Shown here: piece after piece, positions 6,238-16,598 of the stretch | How the letters are laid out: the number at the start of each line of letters is the position of its first letter | How positions within the stretch are numbered: the first letter of the stretch is position 1 | IMG/VR virus record: IMGVR_UViG_3300032893_000009 | Coordinates: 1-64,000 of that record | DNA from: a virus | DNA: 64,000 bases | Direction: 5' to 3' (one strand) | Program-made: the position numbers and the translations under genes | Notes under the pieces: generated by a model | Seen by the model: the letters and a program-made list of their open reading frames with translations, nothing else | Database searches by the model: none | Told to the model about the DNA's origin: nothing

Positions 6238-9200
6238 ATGAGCCTGTCACCCACCCACGGAACGCTTGGCGGGGCATCCCCGTTCGATTTCGAGGCACTA
6301 CGGGACCAGATCATACAGGCCTTCAACCCTGATCAGCCCCGGGTTCCGGCAGGCAACCCCGGAGGCGGTGAATTTGCCAAGGGCGGCGCTCTCAGCGACA
6401 CCGAGATCGAGCGCAGGCTGAAAGCCCCCTCTCTGCCCAACCTGTTCAAGCAGCCCTCAAGCGCCCCATCTTCCCAGCGCAGCTCCACGCCCGAGGAACA
6501 GGCGGCGCGCATCCAGCAGGTGAAGGACAAGGCCAGCAGCGACCCCGAGTGGCACAATGCCGCGCAGGCGGTGGGTGCGCGCGGCGAGCACCGTGACGAC
6601 CCCGGGGTGATGAAGGATGGGCTGTATACGCCATCCGCGCAGGCCGAGAACGACAGGATCGCCAGCGAGTTTCTGACGTCTGCAGCACAGTCTCGCAGTG
6701 GAGAGCAGCCGGTGGCGGTCTTTCTGGTGGGCAAGCCGGGGGCAGGCAAGAGCGGTTTGATTGCCAAGCTGCAGGCGCGCGGTGATCTGCCTCCCACCGT
6801 GCCCATCAATGCTGATCTGGTGCAGGAGAAGTTGCCGGGATACACGCCCGGATTGACGGCGGCCTATCACGAGCGGGCCTGCGACATCGCCCGCAACTGT
6901 CTGACGCCTGCCGTGCTGGCCGGGCGCTACAACGCCTACTTCGACACCACCGACGGGGCCGACCGGCTGGAGAAGACCGCCCGGCAGTTCAAGGATGCCG
7001 GTTACCACATCGTTGTGGTTCATGCCGACGTGGACACCGCGACGTCGGTGGAACGTGTCTACAATAGATTCAGGCAGGATGGCCGCTACATTCCGCTGGA
7101 TATTGTCGAGGGCTACGGCGAGAAACCCAAGAATGCCTATGAGCGGCTGAAGGCCAGCGGCCTTGCCGACGAGTGGAGGGAATATGACACAACAGCCGAG
7201 GGATTTGCTGGAGGCCAATCTGTCGGACAGCCAGCGCGAGTTGTGGAGAAAGGCGCGCGCAGTTCCCGGCAAATACTCAGCCGATCCCGAGGAAGCGTGG
7301 GAGCAGGCGCTGCAGGAAGGGGCCGAGCTGGGAGCCGCGATATTGCGCGAAGGGCAAGGGCCGCCCAAGCCCGCGTAGCCCTGCTCGCCGCCTGCAACGA
7401 GTGGGGCATCCTTGGCGACGGTGAACCCGAGATCACCTCCTACAATCCAGATCAAGCGCGCGACAGTGCTGGGAAGTGGACATCTGGTGGCAGTGAACCC
7501 GAGTCGTGGGTAGGTTTTGATCTGGACGGCACGCTGGCTGAGTACCACGGCTGGAAAGGGTCGGATCACATAGGCGCACCCATCCCCCAGATGGTGCGGA
7601 TTATCAAGAAGCATCTGGCCGACGGCGACAAGGTGAAAATCTTCACCGCCCGGGTGGCCAACGATCCCAAGGGCGTCGCCAAGCAAGCCATTGAAAAGTG
7701 GTGCGTGCAGCACCTCGGCCAGAAGCTGCCGGTCACCTGTGTCAAGGACAGCGGCATGACCATGCTGTACGACGACCGCGCCGTGGCCGTGGTGCGCAAC
7801 GACGGCACGCTGCTCAACGATCCTAGCGAGATTGAGGCCAAGTGCGTCGCCTGTGAGTGTGGCGACTGCGTGATTCATGCCTATAGCGAGGATGAGGCCC
7901 GTGACGAGCATGGCCGCTGGACTGCAGGCATGGAGGAGAATCTGGCTGTCATGTCGCGCACCAGCCATGGCACCGGGCGGGAACCCGACCGTCCGGCACT
8001 AGCGGAGAGCGGCGACGCGCTGGCGGAGAAGGCCAACCAGAACTTCCGCGAGGCTGCCGACTGGGTGTGGCAGCACCGCGACCAGAAGCTGGATTCCGGC
8101 GCGACTGTGCGCCACACTATCGAGAAGCTGGGCAGCATCGTGAACCAAGGCCTGCTGGCTCCCGGGCAGAGCCCGTGGCGGACGTGGAACGATTCGGCCA
8201 AAGGCTACATCCCGGTGGAGAGGATGATGCCCCGGCTCTATCAGTTCTGCGACCAGCTGGCTGCGCGCATGAAGGCTGGCGACGATCCCAAGAGCACCGC
8301 CGCCTTTGTAGAACACGAGTTCAATGCCGAGATTCATCCGCTGGCCGACGGTATGGGCCGCACCACCATGCTGCTGGCGGGGATGACCTTGCTGCAGAAT
8401 GGCCACGAGCTGCCCCGCTATGGCGACCGGGCGGCCTTCTACAAGGGCATCACGTCGCCCGGCTGGGAGGGCTTCTACCACAGCCTGTTCGGGGTGCAGG
8501 CCTTCAGCCCCGACGAGGCCCGGGATGCCTACGGCAGGTGGACGACGGGCGGCGATGTGTATGTCTCGCCCAACGTGGAGGAAAACACCAAGTTCGACGA
8601 GGCCGTGAAGCAGGTGGACAGCGACCGGCAGAAGAACTTCGTCAGTCTAGCGCACCGGGTCTGTGAGGCGGTATTGGGACAGAGCGAGGTGAACAATGCG
8701 GTGGGCGCATGGGCCGACGGCGCGGAAAACTCCACCCACATCACCAGCCACACCGATAATGTCGAGGACCTGAAGTATGCCGGGGCGCTGCTGGCCAAGG
8801 CTGCTCAGCAGAAGGCCTTCCTGTGGTTCAGGCACGACCCGGCGGGCGGCTCGCTGCTCTACACCATTCGGACGGAAGAGGATTTGTCTACAATAGAGAA
8901 GCGCGTCCGGGGTGTCGCCGCTCTGGAGAACCACACCCTCGTGCCTCATTCGTGGGGCACCGAGATACAGGTGTTCGACAAGGACGGTTCTTCAGCGGAG
9001 GCCATCGGCGCATTTTCCGCCGCCCATGGTTACCGGACGACGGCGGCCCGGGGAGAGGGCAATTTCGAGGGCAGCTGGACCAGCCGCGAGGAAGGAGCGA
9101 AGGAATATGACCGAATCATCCAAGACTACGAAGAAGCCCACCCCGGAAGAGCTTACCGCGATTCTCTTACGTTTCAACATCGAGGACGTGACGAAGAAGG

Positions 9201-9798
9201 GCACGGGAGTGGTGATCGTGGGCGGAGTGAAGCCGCCCGAAAAGAAGGGCTGAGCCTCAGTCTCAGCGCGCACATCTACGCCGCCGTTCCTCCCAGCGAG
9301 GTGTTGCGCCGGGTGCGGGCACTGCCTACGGTGCCCGCTCCTAAAAGTCCGCATTGGTCCGCCCTGTGCCGGACCAAGGCTCGCCACTACGGCAAGTCGG
9401 TGTGGAAGAAAAATCCCATCAAGCTGGTGCGCAAGCCTGCCGACGCCGAGGCTTTCAAGCTGCTGCCGGTCAAGCTGCGCGATCATCTGGTCAGCGCCGC
9501 GCCCGTACAGAGGTTCAACCCCCGCGATCTGGTGACCAACCAGCCAGTGGTTTATCTGGCCGACCTCGAACACTTTCTGCGCCACGGCAAGGACCCCGAG
9601 CCGGTAATCGTGCTCAGGAGCAGCGCCGGGTTGTATGTTCACAACGGCAACCACCGCAGTACACTGGCATTGCTGTCCGGGCACAAGGTGCGGGCGCGCT
9701 ACGTGGACCTCGCCAAGGTTCCCGAGGTGCAGAACAGGATCAAGGTGGCGGCCAACATTCTCGACGCGAAGGAAGCCCTTCAGGAGGTGGGTGTATGA
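6238..9798 (+). CDS. Polyvalent effector polyprotein: zeta-toxin kinase + HAD phosphatase + Fic + unknown (SAM-lyase-like) + ParB-like
   Basis: GKPGAGKS/INAD (zeta-like P-loop), GFDLDGTLA...YDDR (HAD), HPLADGMGR (Fic-like), VHNGNHR (ParB/Srx-like). Four [FY][NS]xD[QE]xR..G.[WF] tags. Confidence 0.85.
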   Translation: MSLSPTHGTLGGASPFDFEALRDQIIQAFNPDQPRVPAGNPGGGEFAKGGALSDTEIERRLKAPSLPNLFKQPSSAPSSQRSSTPEEQAARIQQVKDKASSDPEWHNAAQAVGARGEHRDDPGVMKDGLYTPSAQAENDRIASEFLTSAAQSRSGEQPVAVFLVGKPGAGKSGLIAKLQARGDLPPTVPINADLVQEKLPGYTPGLTAAYHERACDIARNCLTPAVLAGRYNAYFDTTDGADRLEKTARQFKDAGYHIVVVHADVDTATSVERVYNRFRQDGRYIPLDIVEGYGEKPKNAYERLKASGLADEWREYDTTAEGFAGGQSVGQPARVVEKGARSSRQILSRSRGSVGAGAAGRGRAGSRDIARRARAAQARVALLAACNEWGILGDGEPEITSYNPDQARDSAGKWTSGGSEPESWVGFDLDGTLAEYHGWKGSDHIGAPIPQMVRIIKKHLADGDKVKIFTARVANDPKGVAKQAIEKWCVQHLGQKLPVTCVKDSGMTMLYDDRAVAVVRNDGTLLNDPSEIEAKCVACECGDCVIHAYSEDEARDEHGRWTAGMEENLAVMSRTSHGTGREPDRPALAESGDALAEKANQNFREAADWVWQHRDQKLDSGATVRHTIEKLGSIVNQGLLAPGQSPWRTWNDSAKGYIPVERMMPRLYQFCDQLAARMKAGDDPKSTAAFVEHEFNAEIHPLADGMGRTTMLLAGMTLLQNGHELPRYGDRAAFYKGITSPGWEGFYHSLFGVQAFSPDEARDAYGRWTTGGDVYVSPNVEENTKFDEAVKQVDSDRQKNFVSLAHRVCEAVLGQSEVNNAVGAWADGAENSTHITSHTDNVEDLKYAGALLAKAAQQKAFLWFRHDPAGGSLLYTIRTEEDLSTIEKRVRGVAALENHTLVPHSWGTEIQVFDKDGSSAEAIGAFSAAHGYRTTAARGEGNFEGSWTSREEGAKEYDRIIQDYEEAHPGRAYRDSLTFQHRGRDEEGHGSGDRGRSEAARKEGLSLSLSAHIYAAVPPSEVLRRVRALPTVPAPKSPHWSALCRTKARHYGKSVWKKNPIKLVRKPADAEAFKLLPVKLRDHLVSAAPVQRFNPRDLVTNQPVVYLADLEHFLRHGKDPEPVIVLRSSAGLYVHNGNHRSTLALLSGHKVRARYVDLAKVPEVQNRIKVAANILDAKEALQEVGV
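7184..7378 (+). CDS. Nested +1-frame 64-aa protein, candidate zeta-domain antitoxin
   Basis: GGAGG RBS then ATG. MTQQPRDLLEANLSDSQRELWRKA...PEEAWEQALQEGAELG reads as amphipathic helices, while the host frame here is R/G/A-rich low complexity. Confidence 0.55.
   Translation: MTQQPRDLLEANLSDSQRELWRKARAVPGKYSADPEEAWEQALQEGAELGAAILREGQGPPKPA
9107..9253 (+). CDS. Nested +1-frame 48-aa protein, candidate antitoxin/partner
   Basis: aaggag..aagga RBS and the same GGAATATGAC start context as 7184. Sequence MTESSKTTKKPTPEELTAILLRFNIEDVTKKGTGVVIVGGVKPPEKKG. Confidence 0.55.
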   Translation: MTESSKTTKKPTPEELTAILLRFNIEDVTKKGTGVVIVGGVKPPEKKG

Positions 9799-12700
9799 GC
9801 CTGCTGTCTCTGGCGATTCAGGAGCTGGCCGACACCATGGAGATGCACGCCTCCGCCTACGTGATCTATGCGTGGAACGAGGAGGATCACCCCCGCGACG
9901 CGCACGGCAAGTTTGCCACCAAGGGCGGCACCGCCGCCGTGAACACCCCTGACAAGGCTGCCGCGCGGCTGGCCAATCTCGGCTACCGGCTGGACGAGGC
10001 CAAGCAAAGCTCCGATGTGTGGCGGGATCAGCGGGGGCGCACGGTGCGGGTATCGAAGTACGATGCGCAGCACCCCGGCAATGTCAACCTTCGCCGCTAC
10101 CGGATGTTCGGCCCGGATGGCGAGAGGCTGTATCAGGGCCACCAGCTGCCTGAGCTGGAGCGGTTGCACGGCAAGCAGCCGCCAGCCCCGCCACAGGCCC
10201 CTGCCGCCCCGGCAAAGCAGGTTGTGGCACCGGCTCCCAAGGCCCCCGCTCCGGCTGCCCCGGCGCAGAACGCTCTGGCCAAGCAGGCCGCCGCCGTGGT
10301 CAGCCTTGCCATGCAGAAGAAGCTGGCCGACGCAGGCTTTGCCCTGAAGGGCATGGTGGACCCCGCACAAGTAATGGGCGGACGGGCAGTGGTGGCCTTC
10401 GTGCATCCCTCCGGTGCCGAGCTGCGAATTTCCACCAATGCTGAGGGCAAGACGATCTATCAGATTTCCATAGGCAGGGACGAGCAGGGCAAACTCCGGC
10501 TGGCCCCCGCGCAGCTGCACAGGCCTTTTGGTGCCGACGGCCAGCTGCGCCCGGATATTCAGTGGGCTCTCAGCAAGCCGCCTGCCGGGCTCACCCAAGC
10601 GCCGGTCAAGCGTGGCGACGCTCCGCCGGAAGGCACCCTGCATGAGAGAGCGCACAATGCTCTGATCGCCGCAGGCTTTGTTTACAAGGGCACCCTTAAC
10701 AAGCGGGCCTATTACGCTCTGCCTGACAAGAATGTGTTTGTCCTTGCCTCTGACCGCCGTGACGATTCTGTGTACAAGGATGGCAAGAACATCACCTACG
10801 CCGCACTCGATCAGGGCATGTTCCTGTTCCGGCGAAACAAACAAGGCAATACTTACCTGCCCAACACCTTCCGCGACGCAGTTGGCCTGCCGCGCAATCC
10901 AGTTGGCGTGATAGACGAGCAGAAGGGCTATGAACTGGCATTTCCCAGAGCCGAGGATCGGGCCGCGCTGGACAAGGCCGGGTTCACCGTAACCAAGGCC
11001 GAGAGCGACGAGGCGGGCAATGTCTCGATTGTGCTGACCCATCCCAGCGGAGTGAGGATCGAAAAGGGCGCTAGTATGTATGCCCGTGTCTTTGATAAAG
11101 ACGGCAAGGACATGGGGCAGATAACCGGGGTGCGCGACCAATTCGGCTACTTGTACAAGGGCATTCGCCAAGCCATCGGCATGCCCGATCCCGACTTGAG
11201 AATGCCCACAGCCAAGCCCGCCGACGAAACAGAACCGGAGTGGCGATATGAGCGTGGGGCGCATAGCGTGCTGGTGGGTGCTGGCATACAGTACATGGGC
11301 ATGGGCCGCGACAAGGACGGGAACACTTATGCAAGTTACAAGGCCCCCAACGGAACGCGCCTGCAGATGTTTGCCGACCGGGGCGCGGTGGCCTTTGACA
11401 AAGACGGCAATCAGGTGGGGAGGTGGCTTAACGGCGCAGCCATCTATGGCTCAAACAGGCAGGGCAATTATTATCTGCGCCCCGAATTCCGTACCGCCAT
11501 GGGCCTCCCCAAGCCACAGTTCACTGGCGACGCGCAGGCTGAGTTCAACAGACTGGTTGACAGAGAGGATCAGAAGGCGCTGGCCGACGCCGGGTTCAAG
11601 CTGGATCGTGTGGAGCTGAATGACAAGGAAGAACCCTACGCGATGCTGACGCATCCGAGCGGCGTCACGATGCGCTACAACGGTAATGACTACATTCTTG
11701 AAAAGGGAGGTCAACCCATTGCCGGACCCAACAGGCACCTTGCAGACAACTTCGGTTTTGTGAACAAGGACATCCGGCAGGCCATCGGCATGCCCGACCC
11801 CGACTTACGCATCCCCACTGCGAAGCCTCCGAGTGCAGCCGACGAGCCACCTTACGAGTTGATCGGCAGCATACGCATGAAGCAGGCAATGCTAAGCAAC
11901 GGCTTCGTCTATCAGGGTGTGGGCCGGGACAAGGACGGCTGGCAGTATGCCAAGTACACCGGTCCCAACGGGGTGACGCTGCGGGCCACGGCCAGCCCAG
12001 ATAACGGGTACAAGGCCAAGGGCTACGACAAGGACGGCAATCTGCTGGGCGAGTGGGGCAAGGTCTACGACCGCAACCGGTTCAACAATGGCTATCTGAT
12101 TCCCGAGGTGCGCAAGGCGCTGGGTGTCCCCCTCCCTGCTTATAGGGGAGGGATGGTGCCGGACGCTGTTCTCAGAACCCTGATCAATTCTGACGCCCGC
12201 AATGCCCTGATCGGGGCTGGATTCGTAGTCAGCCATGTAACGATGAACGACAAGGAAGAGCCTACGGTGGTCCTCACTCACCCCAACGGCGTGCAGATGA
12301 TCATAGACGGCGATGGCTACAAACTGCAGCACGGGTCGCAGGCCGGTCCACGCGACGGCATGGGAATGATGCTGGACAAGTTTGGCTTCCTGAACAAGGA
12401 AATCCGTCAGGCTGCTGGACTGCCGGAGCCGGACCTGAAGCTGCCCACGCAGATAGTGAGGTCGATGCCCAACGTCATCTCCGGTGGGCTGAAAGACGCG
12501 CTGAAGAATGCAGGCTTTGTTCTGCAGGGCGTGGGCCGTGACAAGGATGGCGTGGACTACGCCAAGTTCCTGCACCCCACGGGTGCGGTGGTAAGGATTG
12601 ACGAGAACAAGAACATCTACGTGACCCCTCCGGGCGGCAAGGAAGTGCAGTTTCCCGATCAGCATCCCTACGAGCGCGACGCCAAGAACATTCCGAATCT

Positions 12701-13589
12701 GAAGATTGGCCTGCGCGAGGCTGCCGGAATGCCGACGTGGTGGCTGTCCGCCCCCGGCACCTCGGATATTCCCCAGCCGGTCATTCCGCCCCGGGTTCCG
12801 GCCCCCGTGGTGCCCAGTGAGTCGGTACAGCCCGATCTGCCTATACCCGATCTTCCGCCGCGCGACCCGTCAATTGCGATTGAGAAGGCGCTGTCCACAG
12901 GCCAATCCACCGGGAACAAGAACGCACGCGGCGGCATCAACGCCCTGTACAAGATCAATGTGGCCGGAGTCGGGGAGTGCGGCTTCAAGCCTAATAATGG
13001 GGAAGACACACGCTGTGCGCAGTGCTGGGCTGTCGAGGGCGACGCGGGCGCGCAGGCCAAGCGCGAGGTGGCGGCTTGGCAGATCGCCAAGATGGTGGGG
13101 ATGCGGGATTTGATGGCCCCCCGCGCCATGCGCGAGCACGACGGGGAGCTCGGGGTTGTTTTTCCTTGGACCCCGGGAGAAGTGGCAGGCAATGTCAGCG
13201 CGTCCAAGCGTTTCGACGGCGAGCAGGATTGCGCGCGCTGCGCGGCTTACGACTACGTGGTGGCCGACGGCGACCGGCACAGTAACAACTGGCTCATACA
13301 GGACGATGCTTCAGAGCCCAAAATTCAGCTCATCGATCACGGGCTGATCATTCCCAACGACGACAAGATGAACAGCACACAGGGATTTCTTGCCGAGATG
13401 ATGGACGCGCAGGAACCGGGTCTGCGGCCCTACGAAATGGCGCAGCCCTTTGTGGACAAGAAAAACGACATCATCACCTATCTCGCCAATCAGGGATTCA
13501 GCAAAGAGGCGATTCATGGCGTGGCGGTGCGTATCGATGATTTGGCTCGGGCCAAGCAATGGAACGACCTGAAGTATAAGGCTTGGTAG
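9795..13589 (+). CDS. Head-cargo protein with eight ~100-aa repeats and a C-terminal HipA/PI3-PI4K-like kinase
   Basis: Start at the ATGA overlap with GGAGG RBS. WNEEDHPRDAHGKF tag; LxxAGF...HPxG repeats; FKP..E, REVAAW, DRHSNN and IDHGL kinase motifs. Confidence 0.8.
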   Translation: MSLLSLAIQELADTMEMHASAYVIYAWNEEDHPRDAHGKFATKGGTAAVNTPDKAAARLANLGYRLDEAKQSSDVWRDQRGRTVRVSKYDAQHPGNVNLRRYRMFGPDGERLYQGHQLPELERLHGKQPPAPPQAPAAPAKQVVAPAPKAPAPAAPAQNALAKQAAAVVSLAMQKKLADAGFALKGMVDPAQVMGGRAVVAFVHPSGAELRISTNAEGKTIYQISIGRDEQGKLRLAPAQLHRPFGADGQLRPDIQWALSKPPAGLTQAPVKRGDAPPEGTLHERAHNALIAAGFVYKGTLNKRAYYALPDKNVFVLASDRRDDSVYKDGKNITYAALDQGMFLFRRNKQGNTYLPNTFRDAVGLPRNPVGVIDEQKGYELAFPRAEDRAALDKAGFTVTKAESDEAGNVSIVLTHPSGVRIEKGASMYARVFDKDGKDMGQITGVRDQFGYLYKGIRQAIGMPDPDLRMPTAKPADETEPEWRYERGAHSVLVGAGIQYMGMGRDKDGNTYASYKAPNGTRLQMFADRGAVAFDKDGNQVGRWLNGAAIYGSNRQGNYYLRPEFRTAMGLPKPQFTGDAQAEFNRLVDREDQKALADAGFKLDRVELNDKEEPYAMLTHPSGVTMRYNGNDYILEKGGQPIAGPNRHLADNFGFVNKDIRQAIGMPDPDLRIPTAKPPSAADEPPYELIGSIRMKQAMLSNGFVYQGVGRDKDGWQYAKYTGPNGVTLRATASPDNGYKAKGYDKDGNLLGEWGKVYDRNRFNNGYLIPEVRKALGVPLPAYRGGMVPDAVLRTLINSDARNALIGAGFVVSHVTMNDKEEPTVVLTHPNGVQMIIDGDGYKLQHGSQAGPRDGMGMMLDKFGFLNKEIRQAAGLPEPDLKLPTQIVRSMPNVISGGLKDALKNAGFVLQGVGRDKDGVDYAKFLHPTGAVVRIDENKNIYVTPPGGKEVQFPDQHPYERDAKNIPNLKIGLREAAGMPTWWLSAPGTSDIPQPVIPPRVPAPVVPSESVQPDLPIPDLPPRDPSIAIEKALSTGQSTGNKNARGGINALYKINVAGVGECGFKPNNGEDTRCAQCWAVEGDAGAQAKREVAAWQIAKMVGMRDLMAPRAMREHDGELGVVFPWTPGEVAGNVSASKRFDGEQDCARCAAYDYVVADGDRHSNNWLIQDDASEPKIQLIDHGLIIPNDDKMNSTQGFLAEMMDAQEPGLRPYEMAQPFVDKKNDIITYLANQGFSKEAIHGVAVRIDDLARAKQWNDLKYKAW

Positions 13590-16110: not shown

Positions 16111-16598
16111 TGGGCTACGGCGGACTCAATATCGGCCCCGGCATACAGCGCTTGATCGACGCGCAGATGCGCTATCTCAACGCCGCGCGTGTCCCGGTGT
16201 TCATGCGCTTCCGCAACTTCACCCCGCCGGACAACCAGATGTACGCGCAGCTGGGCTACGTCATCAATCCGCCCAGCCCAGAGCCGCTGACCACCGGGAC
16301 CACCGACGTGCAGATCACCCCGACGCCCGGCACCCGCATGGTGTCCATGCACAACATCGGCATGAGCCAAGGCAAGCTGCGCTTCGGGGCGAGGGACTTC
16401 ACCATCTCCCAGAGCTTCGTGGCCCTTCAGCAGCTTGCTCTTGGATTGGCAACTCCCGATCAGTTATGGTTGTCGCAGCAATTCGTGGGCCTCGTGGCCT
16501 ACGGAGTTTTGTGGACCGTGGAAATGTACGCGTCCGACGACGTGGGCGGTGTTCCGGTGGTCTGGACATGCACCTGCAATGCGAACGAGCAGAGGTAA
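16110..16598 (+). CDS. Putative head closure / neck protein
   Basis: Position in the neck module, beta-rich composition, TGATG overlap start. Confidence 0.5.
   Translation: MGYGGLNIGPGIQRLIDAQMRYLNAARVPVFMRFRNFTPPDNQMYAQLGYVINPPSPEPLTTGTTDVQITPTPGTRMVSMHNIGMSQGKLRFGARDFTISQSFVALQQLALGLATPDQLWLSQQFVGLVAYGVLWTVEMYASDDVGGVPVVWTCTCNANEQR

Follow-up and report, generated by a model that had tools for sequence, protein, structure and literature searches.

The first 64,000 bases of a complete 118,881-bp virus record with terminal repeats (IMGVR_UViG_3300032893_000009; bases 1–64000, hereafter the window) carry a gene for a large, multi-module phage protein, and inside this host gene a small open reading frame (ORF) runs in the +1 frame across the end of one module, which we call module 4. 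Comparison of related loci supports the view that this nested ORF is genuine coding sequence, conserved in the +1 frame in association with module 4. Structural modelling supports a predicted binding of the nested peptide to module 4 on its conserved, presumed functional face, and the nested product is probably the module's built-in partner, perhaps an inhibitor. To the fuller proposal, that 9107–9253 forms the 3′ part of a small, genuine gene which overprints a virion-associated polyvalent gene in its +1 frame and whose product binds and inhibits module 4, we give about an even chance.

The nested ORF was proposed in a first-pass annotation of the sequence, and both the frame and its 48-residue translation are present as described (table 1). 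The annotation also pointed to a 10-mer, GGAATATGAC, shared with the start of another nested ORF in the same gene. The sharing is confirmed, with exactly two copies in the window (7179–7188 and 9102–9111; 0.02 expected, and two or more in none of 100 shuffles), both on host codons E-Y-D. The 10-mer is shared because these host codons are the same, so that the suggestion that two instances make chance less likely carries little weight, the other ORF being thinly supported. The start had been placed at the end of a module; the ATG in fact lies inside the last helix of module 4, and the DNA for this helix also holds the ribosome-binding site, start and first 11 codons of the nested ORF. Family members conserve the stretch EYDRIIQDYEEAHP..Y of the helix in the host frame, with Y and I nearly invariant. 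The low complexity reported for the host frame is real only after about position 9140, the part before it being the conserved helix stretch.

The +1 frame is open from 8912 in the window, and two start codons come into question. The downstream one, at 9107, has a Shine–Dalgarno-like AAGGAG 9 nt ahead of it, made from the conserved host residues R-E-E-G. The upstream one, at 9026, has no Shine–Dalgarno motif in the window and is covered by a 15-bp long-range RNA pairing that joins it to codons of the peptide core (duplex −30.2 kcal/mol, z −3.9; fold z −2.36); this pairing could mask the 9026 start. Since 9026 is both without a Shine–Dalgarno motif and buried in the pairing, 9107 is on sequence grounds the likelier start in this phage; the start conserved family-wide is the upstream ATG. 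The guanine-plus-cytosine (GC) content by codon position changes to the +1 frame over 9118–9267, where host third-position GC is 0.43–0.47 compared with about 0.8 elsewhere. Contigs from three public DNA runs, one of which may be the source sample, match 8922–9800, 8944–9616 and 9024–9513 with identical letters and no insertions or deletions, and thus the frame layout is not an assembly slip; as these contigs contain no variants, they are uninformative on selection. No family was found for the nested peptide in Pfam or PHROGs and no usable match in the ESM Atlas, and a promoter and terminator scan gave nothing relevant near the ORF.

We gathered homologues of module 4 as 15 proteins, as 45 metagenome and 27 viral loci that reduce to 53 distinct C-termini including that of the window, and as 13 loci from prokaryote genomes. 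The start, GC and profile tests that follow were confined to loci with an open host frame and a +1 frame of 40–70 or 40–75 codons past the host GSW anchor, which left out 11 loci with a short +1 frame and five with more than 75 codons (L060, L069, L049, L054 and L056); the synonymous-identity and profile tests also dropped two loci more than 60% identical to a kept one. In the resulting profile of synonymous-codon identity (34 loci, all below 60% identity), pair-based z-scores are 0–2 over the first 80 alignment columns, peak at 8–10 fifteen codons before the GSW anchor, which is the position of the +1 ATG (9026 in the window), and run at 3.4–8.4 across columns 252–282 of the overlap. In 31 of 37 loci a +1 ATG stands 11–18 codons ahead of the anchor and is not followed by a stop, where host protein and codon usage would predict 13.2 ± 2.6; control windows shifted upstream and treated alike gave 1/36, 11/36, 0/36, 5/35 and 6/35. 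At a single aligned column, the +1 ATG was found in 17 of 34 loci (9.3 expected).

The composition of the overlap and the peptide sequence agree with this picture. Third-position GC of the host frame is 0.70 over the module core and 0.51 over the overlap, where it lies below first-position GC in all 30 loci; the core shows this in 10 of 30 (Wilcoxon p = 2.6e-8). In a cross-validated test, where a profile built from the +1 peptides of half of the loci scores a held-out locus, the real +1 peptide ranked above every one of 100 host-preserving shuffles for 23 of the 29 loci, and above 95 or more for 28 of the 29. Under the near-invariant Ile of the peptide, the host third position has an entropy of 0.21 and the host second position one of 1.0. 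A pairwise similarity test was replaced by the position profile and the cross-validated test, as the former raised the +2 frame too.

Table 1. Coordinates of the nested ORFs, module 4 and associated features in the window.
Feature	Position	Strand	Description
Host ORF	6238–9798	+	1186 aa; multi-module (polyvalent) phage protein
Module order of host ORF			zeta-toxin-like kinase, HAD-like module, weak Fic match, module 4, C-terminal module
First nested +1 ORF	7184–7378	+	64 aa; behind the zeta-kinase domain; start context same as second
Module 4	8548–9138	+	compact α/β domain, predicted SAM-lyase-like fold, host frame
Long-range RNA pairing	9020–9034 with 9211–9225	+	15 bp; covers upstream ATG and joins it to peptide-core codons
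Nested ORF, long form	9026–9253	+	75 aa + stop; starts at family-conserved upstream ATG
Last helix of module 4 (SREEGAKEYDRIIQDYEEAH)	9085–9138	+	model residues 180–197
Shine–Dalgarno-like AAGGAG	9092–9097	+	9 nt ahead of ATG 9107; from host R-E-E-G
10-mer GGAATATGAC	9102–9111	+	common to 7179–7188
Nested ORF, short form	9107–9253	+	48 aa + stop, +1 frame of host; ATG 9107–9109, TGA 9251–9253
Conserved core of nested peptide (FNIEDVTKKGTGVVIVGGVKPPE)	9173–9241	+	segment predicted to contact module 4

Structure co-prediction, which the first-pass annotation had put forward, predicts a complex of the two. Models of the peptide with module 4 gave interface scores derived from predicted aligned errors (ipSAE) of 0.92, 0.92 and 0.93, compared with 0.00 in each of three controls, with a partner pLDDT (predicted local distance difference test) of 77–79 and at least 87% of contacts common to the runs. 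Of 80 solved complexes 58 reach the ipSAE mark that we used, as do 2 of 110 mismatched pairs; these counts are only a rough guide for models run with their own alignments. The modelled contacts involve peptide residues 50–72 of the 75-residue form (23–45 of the short form), exactly the conserved core. On the module, the contact set comprises 63 of 211 residues and holds 12 of the 20 conserved positions (Fisher p = 0.003), made up of six of the eight invariant ones (G53, W55, E60, Q88, K89 and T130) and six of the 12 near-invariant ones. When modelled alone the peptide reached a pLDDT of only 62, with one helix at PEELTAILLR, a poor solo model that fits folding on binding.

Module 4 itself was modelled by AlphaFold2 from 47 sequences with high confidence (pLDDT 95.8; predicted template modelling score 0.91). 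The best Foldseek match in the PDB was the S-adenosylmethionine (SAM) lyase of phage T3 (8bb1_E; E 1.7e-3, probability 1.00, template modelling scores 0.41/0.56), followed by 7ock_K (probability 0.99) and the phage SAM lyase 6znb (probability 0.98). The Pfam family S-AdoMet_lyase (PF23780) matched two of the 47 members, with a best E of 0.0096, and the window's own module 4 matched no Pfam family. We therefore describe module 4 as SAM-lyase-like on the basis of its predicted fold and do not place it in the SAM lyase family.

Relatives of the peptide exist as called genes. A phmmer search with the 48-residue peptide against 1.84 billion representatives found five small proteins (57–98 aa, 49–80% identity, E 1.5e-15 to 2.7e-4); three long matches (P0020, P0022 and P0023) were set aside by eye as low-complexity repeat proteins and regarded as spurious. 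A profile search of a 5.8-billion set returned 19 small called metagenome proteins (56–133 aa, E 1e-6 to 3e-27), some of them on contigs of 97.6 and 245.9 kb. The Met matching 9107 is kept in eight of the nine called homologues of the window clade that have an upstream called start, the ninth having V. The peptides share the pattern ...EL..L..(NPRF)...(D)VT...G.G(F/Y/V)(V/I/T)I.G..(K/R)P, followed by the stop. The sole close relative with DNA, L006, has a +1-frame homologue at 16153–16302 (53% identity over 47 aa) that keeps both ATGs, the frame and the stop. More broadly, at least 40 open +1 codons follow the anchor in 42 of the 53 viral and metagenome loci.

Several other searches added little to this set. 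Among cultured phages, tblastn with the host protein matched single domains in 26 records, none covering 80% of the query, and blastn matched none. The host protein together with a neighbouring head-region protein found one close relative (contig L002/L006) and three related contigs that have no module 4. On viral contigs, a single-protein scan with module 4 and a search with P0039 gave no match, and of 21 pattern matches to the nested-peptide alignment none was confirmed by tblastn.

A number of observations count against this interpretation of the ORF. When the host codons are reshuffled synonymously, the +1 frame stays open over the observed length in 20% of the window's trials, and in 13–100% of trials across the 53 loci. 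Openness, which follows from the R/E/G/D-rich composition of the host, is not significant by this measure and we dropped it as evidence. The +2 frame also beats the shuffle null, and synonymous-site constraint of any kind lifts both frames. Two conserved Gly residues of the peptide come from conserved host Trp codons and the nested stop falls on a conserved host G-L-(K/R/S), so that the pattern is partly a shadow of the host frame. The synonymous-identity profile shows a secondary rise (z 3–6.6, columns 84–140, at about 8780–8950 in the window and inside module 4) with no ORF or structure tied to it, and the loci are related, so that its pair-based z-scores overstate independence. The enzymatic identity of module 4 rests on fold matches at E values above 1e-3 and the two weak Pfam matches, and a sequence-profile search of the PDB with the module found no lyase.

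The comparison between the window and L006 divides the peptide in two. Over 9085–9166, the host has 10 synonymous and seven non-synonymous changed codons and the nested frame none and 17, which argues that the first 20 residues of the peptide are not selected as protein. Over 9176–9244, the counts are 2 and 11 for the host and 3 and 8 for the nested frame, with two of the three nested-silent changes turning a host R into C; these core counts favour the nested frame only mildly. We take the C-terminal 25 residues (F..DVT..G.G..I.GG..P) to be the selected part, the N-terminal part appearing to be a by-product of the host frame.

The distribution of the ORF has limits as well. The first-pass annotation proposed to test whether the peptide always follows homologues of module 4, and it does not: fewer than 40 open +1 codons are found in 11 of the 53 viral and metagenome loci, mostly on lower-GC contigs or where module 4 ends the protein, and the peptide core was recognized by eye in only 3 of the 13 genomic loci (L086, L094 and L095). 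In addition, a stand-alone subfamily of module 4 in Acidobacteriota-type metagenome-assembled genomes (MAGs) is without the peptide. The refuting observation named in that annotation, homologues of module 4 that lack the ORF, is therefore borne out in part, and the nested ORF marks a large subclade and not the whole module-4 family.

The explanation we favour is a small gene overprinted on the end of module 4 and the following linker, which would be translated separately from the same late mRNA. Initiation would occur at ATG 9107 behind AAGGAG in this phage, and at an ATG about 27 codons further upstream across the family. The product would be a peptide of 48–75 residues, disordered when alone, and on binding its C-terminal 25 residues would lie over the β-sheet face of module 4 that bears the invariant residues of the family. 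Made from the same mRNA as the module, the peptide could hold the enzyme in check in the cell that is building virions, while a packaged or injected module would act free of the peptide in the next host. Binding here is as predicted by modelling; the inhibition and the logic of producer-cell protection are what we infer. Of the original suggestion of a cognate inhibitor for module 4, what stands is thus a conserved coding element whose product is predicted to bind the conserved face of the module.

Other explanations deserve consideration. The nested gene could be real and its product bind module 4 in a role other than inhibition, as a positive subunit, as a folding or packaging chaperone, or as a factor that keeps the module monomeric for capsid loading. 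The same coding and binding evidence applies, and a contact face containing the invariant residues would also be expected of a cofactor-like subunit that completes an active site. We nevertheless consider such a role unlikely: module 4 is predicted to fold without the peptide with the confidence given above, and the existence of the stand-alone subfamily indicates that the fold, and presumably basic activity, can do without the peptide. A different possibility is that nothing is translated from the ORF at all, and that it is a by-product of the host protein combined with a constraint at the nucleotide level, for instance from RNA structure or from a signal for regulation or packaging. The openness of the frame, the two Gly residues and the stop do derive from host sequence, the window has its long-range duplex, and synonymous conservation is raised elsewhere in the module where there is no ORF. 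As a family-wide explanation, however, the duplex was rejected, as z falls below −2 in only 2 of 25 loci, making it specific to the window, and no Rfam match was found. The constraint moreover preserves the amino acid character of the +1 frame (F/Y, V/I/T and K/R) and its start codon, and the predicted interface, confident and clean of signal in controls, is with exactly the module that the ORF overlaps. This second alternative therefore appears improbable.

Programmed +1 frameshifting after the last helix would make the peptide the tail of a truncated polyprotein, with no separate initiation and with the core folding back on its own module. This would account for the lack of protein-level constraint on the first 20 nested codons, for the several relatives that have no ATG at the 9107 position and for a modelled interface confined to the C-terminal part; a purine-rich AAGGAG could also serve as a frameshift stimulator, as in prfB. 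It sits poorly with the retention of the +1 ATG well above expectation, with a synonymous constraint that starts at this ATG and not at a later site, and with the Met at 9107 kept in the window clade. No common slippery or hungry-codon site was noticed, although no formal search was made, and on balance we find frameshifting rather improbable. That the change of frame is a sequencing or assembly error, with the +1 stretch really in frame with the polyprotein, is hardly credible. The coding signature does change frame for about 150 nt, as such an error would produce, but the +1 stretch is bounded by a start and a stop of its own, the host frame continues uninterrupted, the same layout recurs in L006 and in dozens of distant loci, the contigs from three runs agree to the letter, and no long protein was seen with the peptide in frame.

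An overprinted partner for module 4 has parallels in known systems. In phage lambda, one spanin gene of the Rz/Rz1 pair is wholly embedded in the +1 frame of the larger one and the two products bind each other; related phages have embedded, overlapped and separate layouts, and Rz1 is a lipoprotein with a role in lysis. The likeness lies in an embedded +1 gene with mutually binding products, the binding here being modelled only. The differences are that the host described here is a multi-module, virion-associated effector gene, and that the nested peptide lacks a signal sequence, its gene lying over the end of a single enzyme module. In Bacillus subtilis, comS is a peptide gene of about 46 codons lying out of frame inside the giant multi-module gene srfAB, and ComS acts on MecA/ClpCP. 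The resemblance is of a small out-of-frame peptide in a giant modular gene, but the target of ComS is unrelated to its host protein. Polymorphic toxin immunity systems and epsilon/zeta pairs make a small cognate protein together with an enzyme domain, the immunity genes normally being separate ORFs after the toxin. Here too a small partner is encoded at its module and predicted to cover a conserved face, but it is overprinted inside a polyprotein ORF that continues.

Phage SAM lyases are small enzymes used against host defence, and we know of no partner peptide described for them. The T3 SAMase and Svi3-3 (PDB 8bb1, 7ock and 6znb) are the best structural matches to module 4, which at about 200 residues is longer than these lyases (125–147) and has no significant sequence match to them. 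A role for a SAM-AMP lyase in type III CRISPR is reported in the available text of PMC12255297. The host protein resembles the polyvalent proteins of Iyer et al. 2017 (PMC5512222) in being multi-domain, linked to the head module and fused to a zeta kinase; nested partner genes fall outside the concept as set out in that paper's main text, which does not contain the terms ‘overlap’, ‘frameshift’ or ‘SAMase’. A literature search, limited to main texts, brought up no description of polyvalent proteins with nested partner genes. Embedded +1 genes with binding products and peptides inside giant genes are thus already known, and what would be new is a nested partner in a polyvalent protein.

If the peptide is a cognate inhibitor, it would explain how a phage can build polyvalent or capsid-packaged effectors and yet spare the cell in which its virions are made. 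The peptide would also serve directly as a ligand for a SAM-lyase-like anti-defence enzyme, and the pair would be a clean, deeply conserved case of one stretch of DNA encoding two mutually binding proteins. Gene callers skip nested genes on the same strand, so that a whole layer of small partner proteins in the giant genes of phages would be invisible in databases.

A broader reading, which we put forward tentatively and consider doubtful, is a general rule for polyvalent proteins delivered with the virion. Each dangerous module would have an antidote overprinted on the module end and linker, with the zeta kinase paired with 7184–7378 and the SAM-lyase-like module with 9026/9107–9253; the antidotes would be made in the producer cell and left unpackaged, so that the effectors become armed on injection. 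Under this rule the module-4 pair would be ancient, being kept at less than 35% identity of the host protein in phages that apparently infect several bacterial phyla, and the class would have been missed by annotation pipelines. The first nested ORF bears on this rule. The GC-phase switch is seen there too, over 7198–7347, and L006 has a homologue in the +1 frame at 12586–12726 that carries an ATG and a stop of its own and is 45% identical over 47 aa. It has just this one relative with DNA, and a comparison with small called proteins gave no homologue.

Beyond the loci that keep the nested frame, a few variants of the arrangement were seen. P0038, a called metagenome protein of 104 aa, consists of pieces of the host-frame linker tag and module 4 followed directly by the nested-frame peptide, and looks like a deletion of most of module 4 with a one-base frame change; the peptide may be able to outlast its module, or the protein may stem from faulty assembly. 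In four lower-GC loci (L017, L019, L020 and L042), module 4 ends the protein about 42 codons past the GSW anchor and the +1 ORF is broken. The first three have instead a separate downstream gene that begins MSFIEELQKI.DEQHGAVNDPLNPG about 120–190 nt after the anchor and may be a different partner; its counterpart in L042 has a different N-terminus. The homologues of module 4 in prokaryote genomes (L086–L098) are in MAGs of Acidobacteriota (including Pyrinomonadaceae), Armatimonadota, Planctomycetota and Ktedonobacteraceae. The window sequence is present in three wetland metagenome runs, which together with these taxa gives only a hint of soil or wetland hosts.

The host protein carries a Pfam Zeta_toxin match at residues 152–312 (E 5e-19), PHROGs matches to phosphoheptose isomerase and polynucleotide kinase (HAD-type) at residues 424–494, and a Pfam Fic match under the cut-off at residues 660–715 (E 0.046). 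Downstream lie a head–tail adaptor gene and a minor-head-protein/DarB-like gene, which place the host protein in the virion module. It fits the concept of a polyvalent protein as presented in the available text of Iyer et al. 2017 (PMC5512222), where the zeta-kinase domain is described as fused in phage polyvalent proteins. The final 445 nt of the host ORF are shared, in a different frame, with the next long ORF (9354–13589, + strand; 1411 aa from a TTG start, with a PI3/PI4-kinase-like match towards the end), whose true start is probably close to the host stop at 9798 (9795–9800). The linker motif ahead of module 4 (..Y/F-S/D-P-D-x-x-R-D-x-x-G-x-W..) precedes many other modules in proteins of unrelated architecture (P0004–P0018), among them the portal fusions P0011 and P0012.

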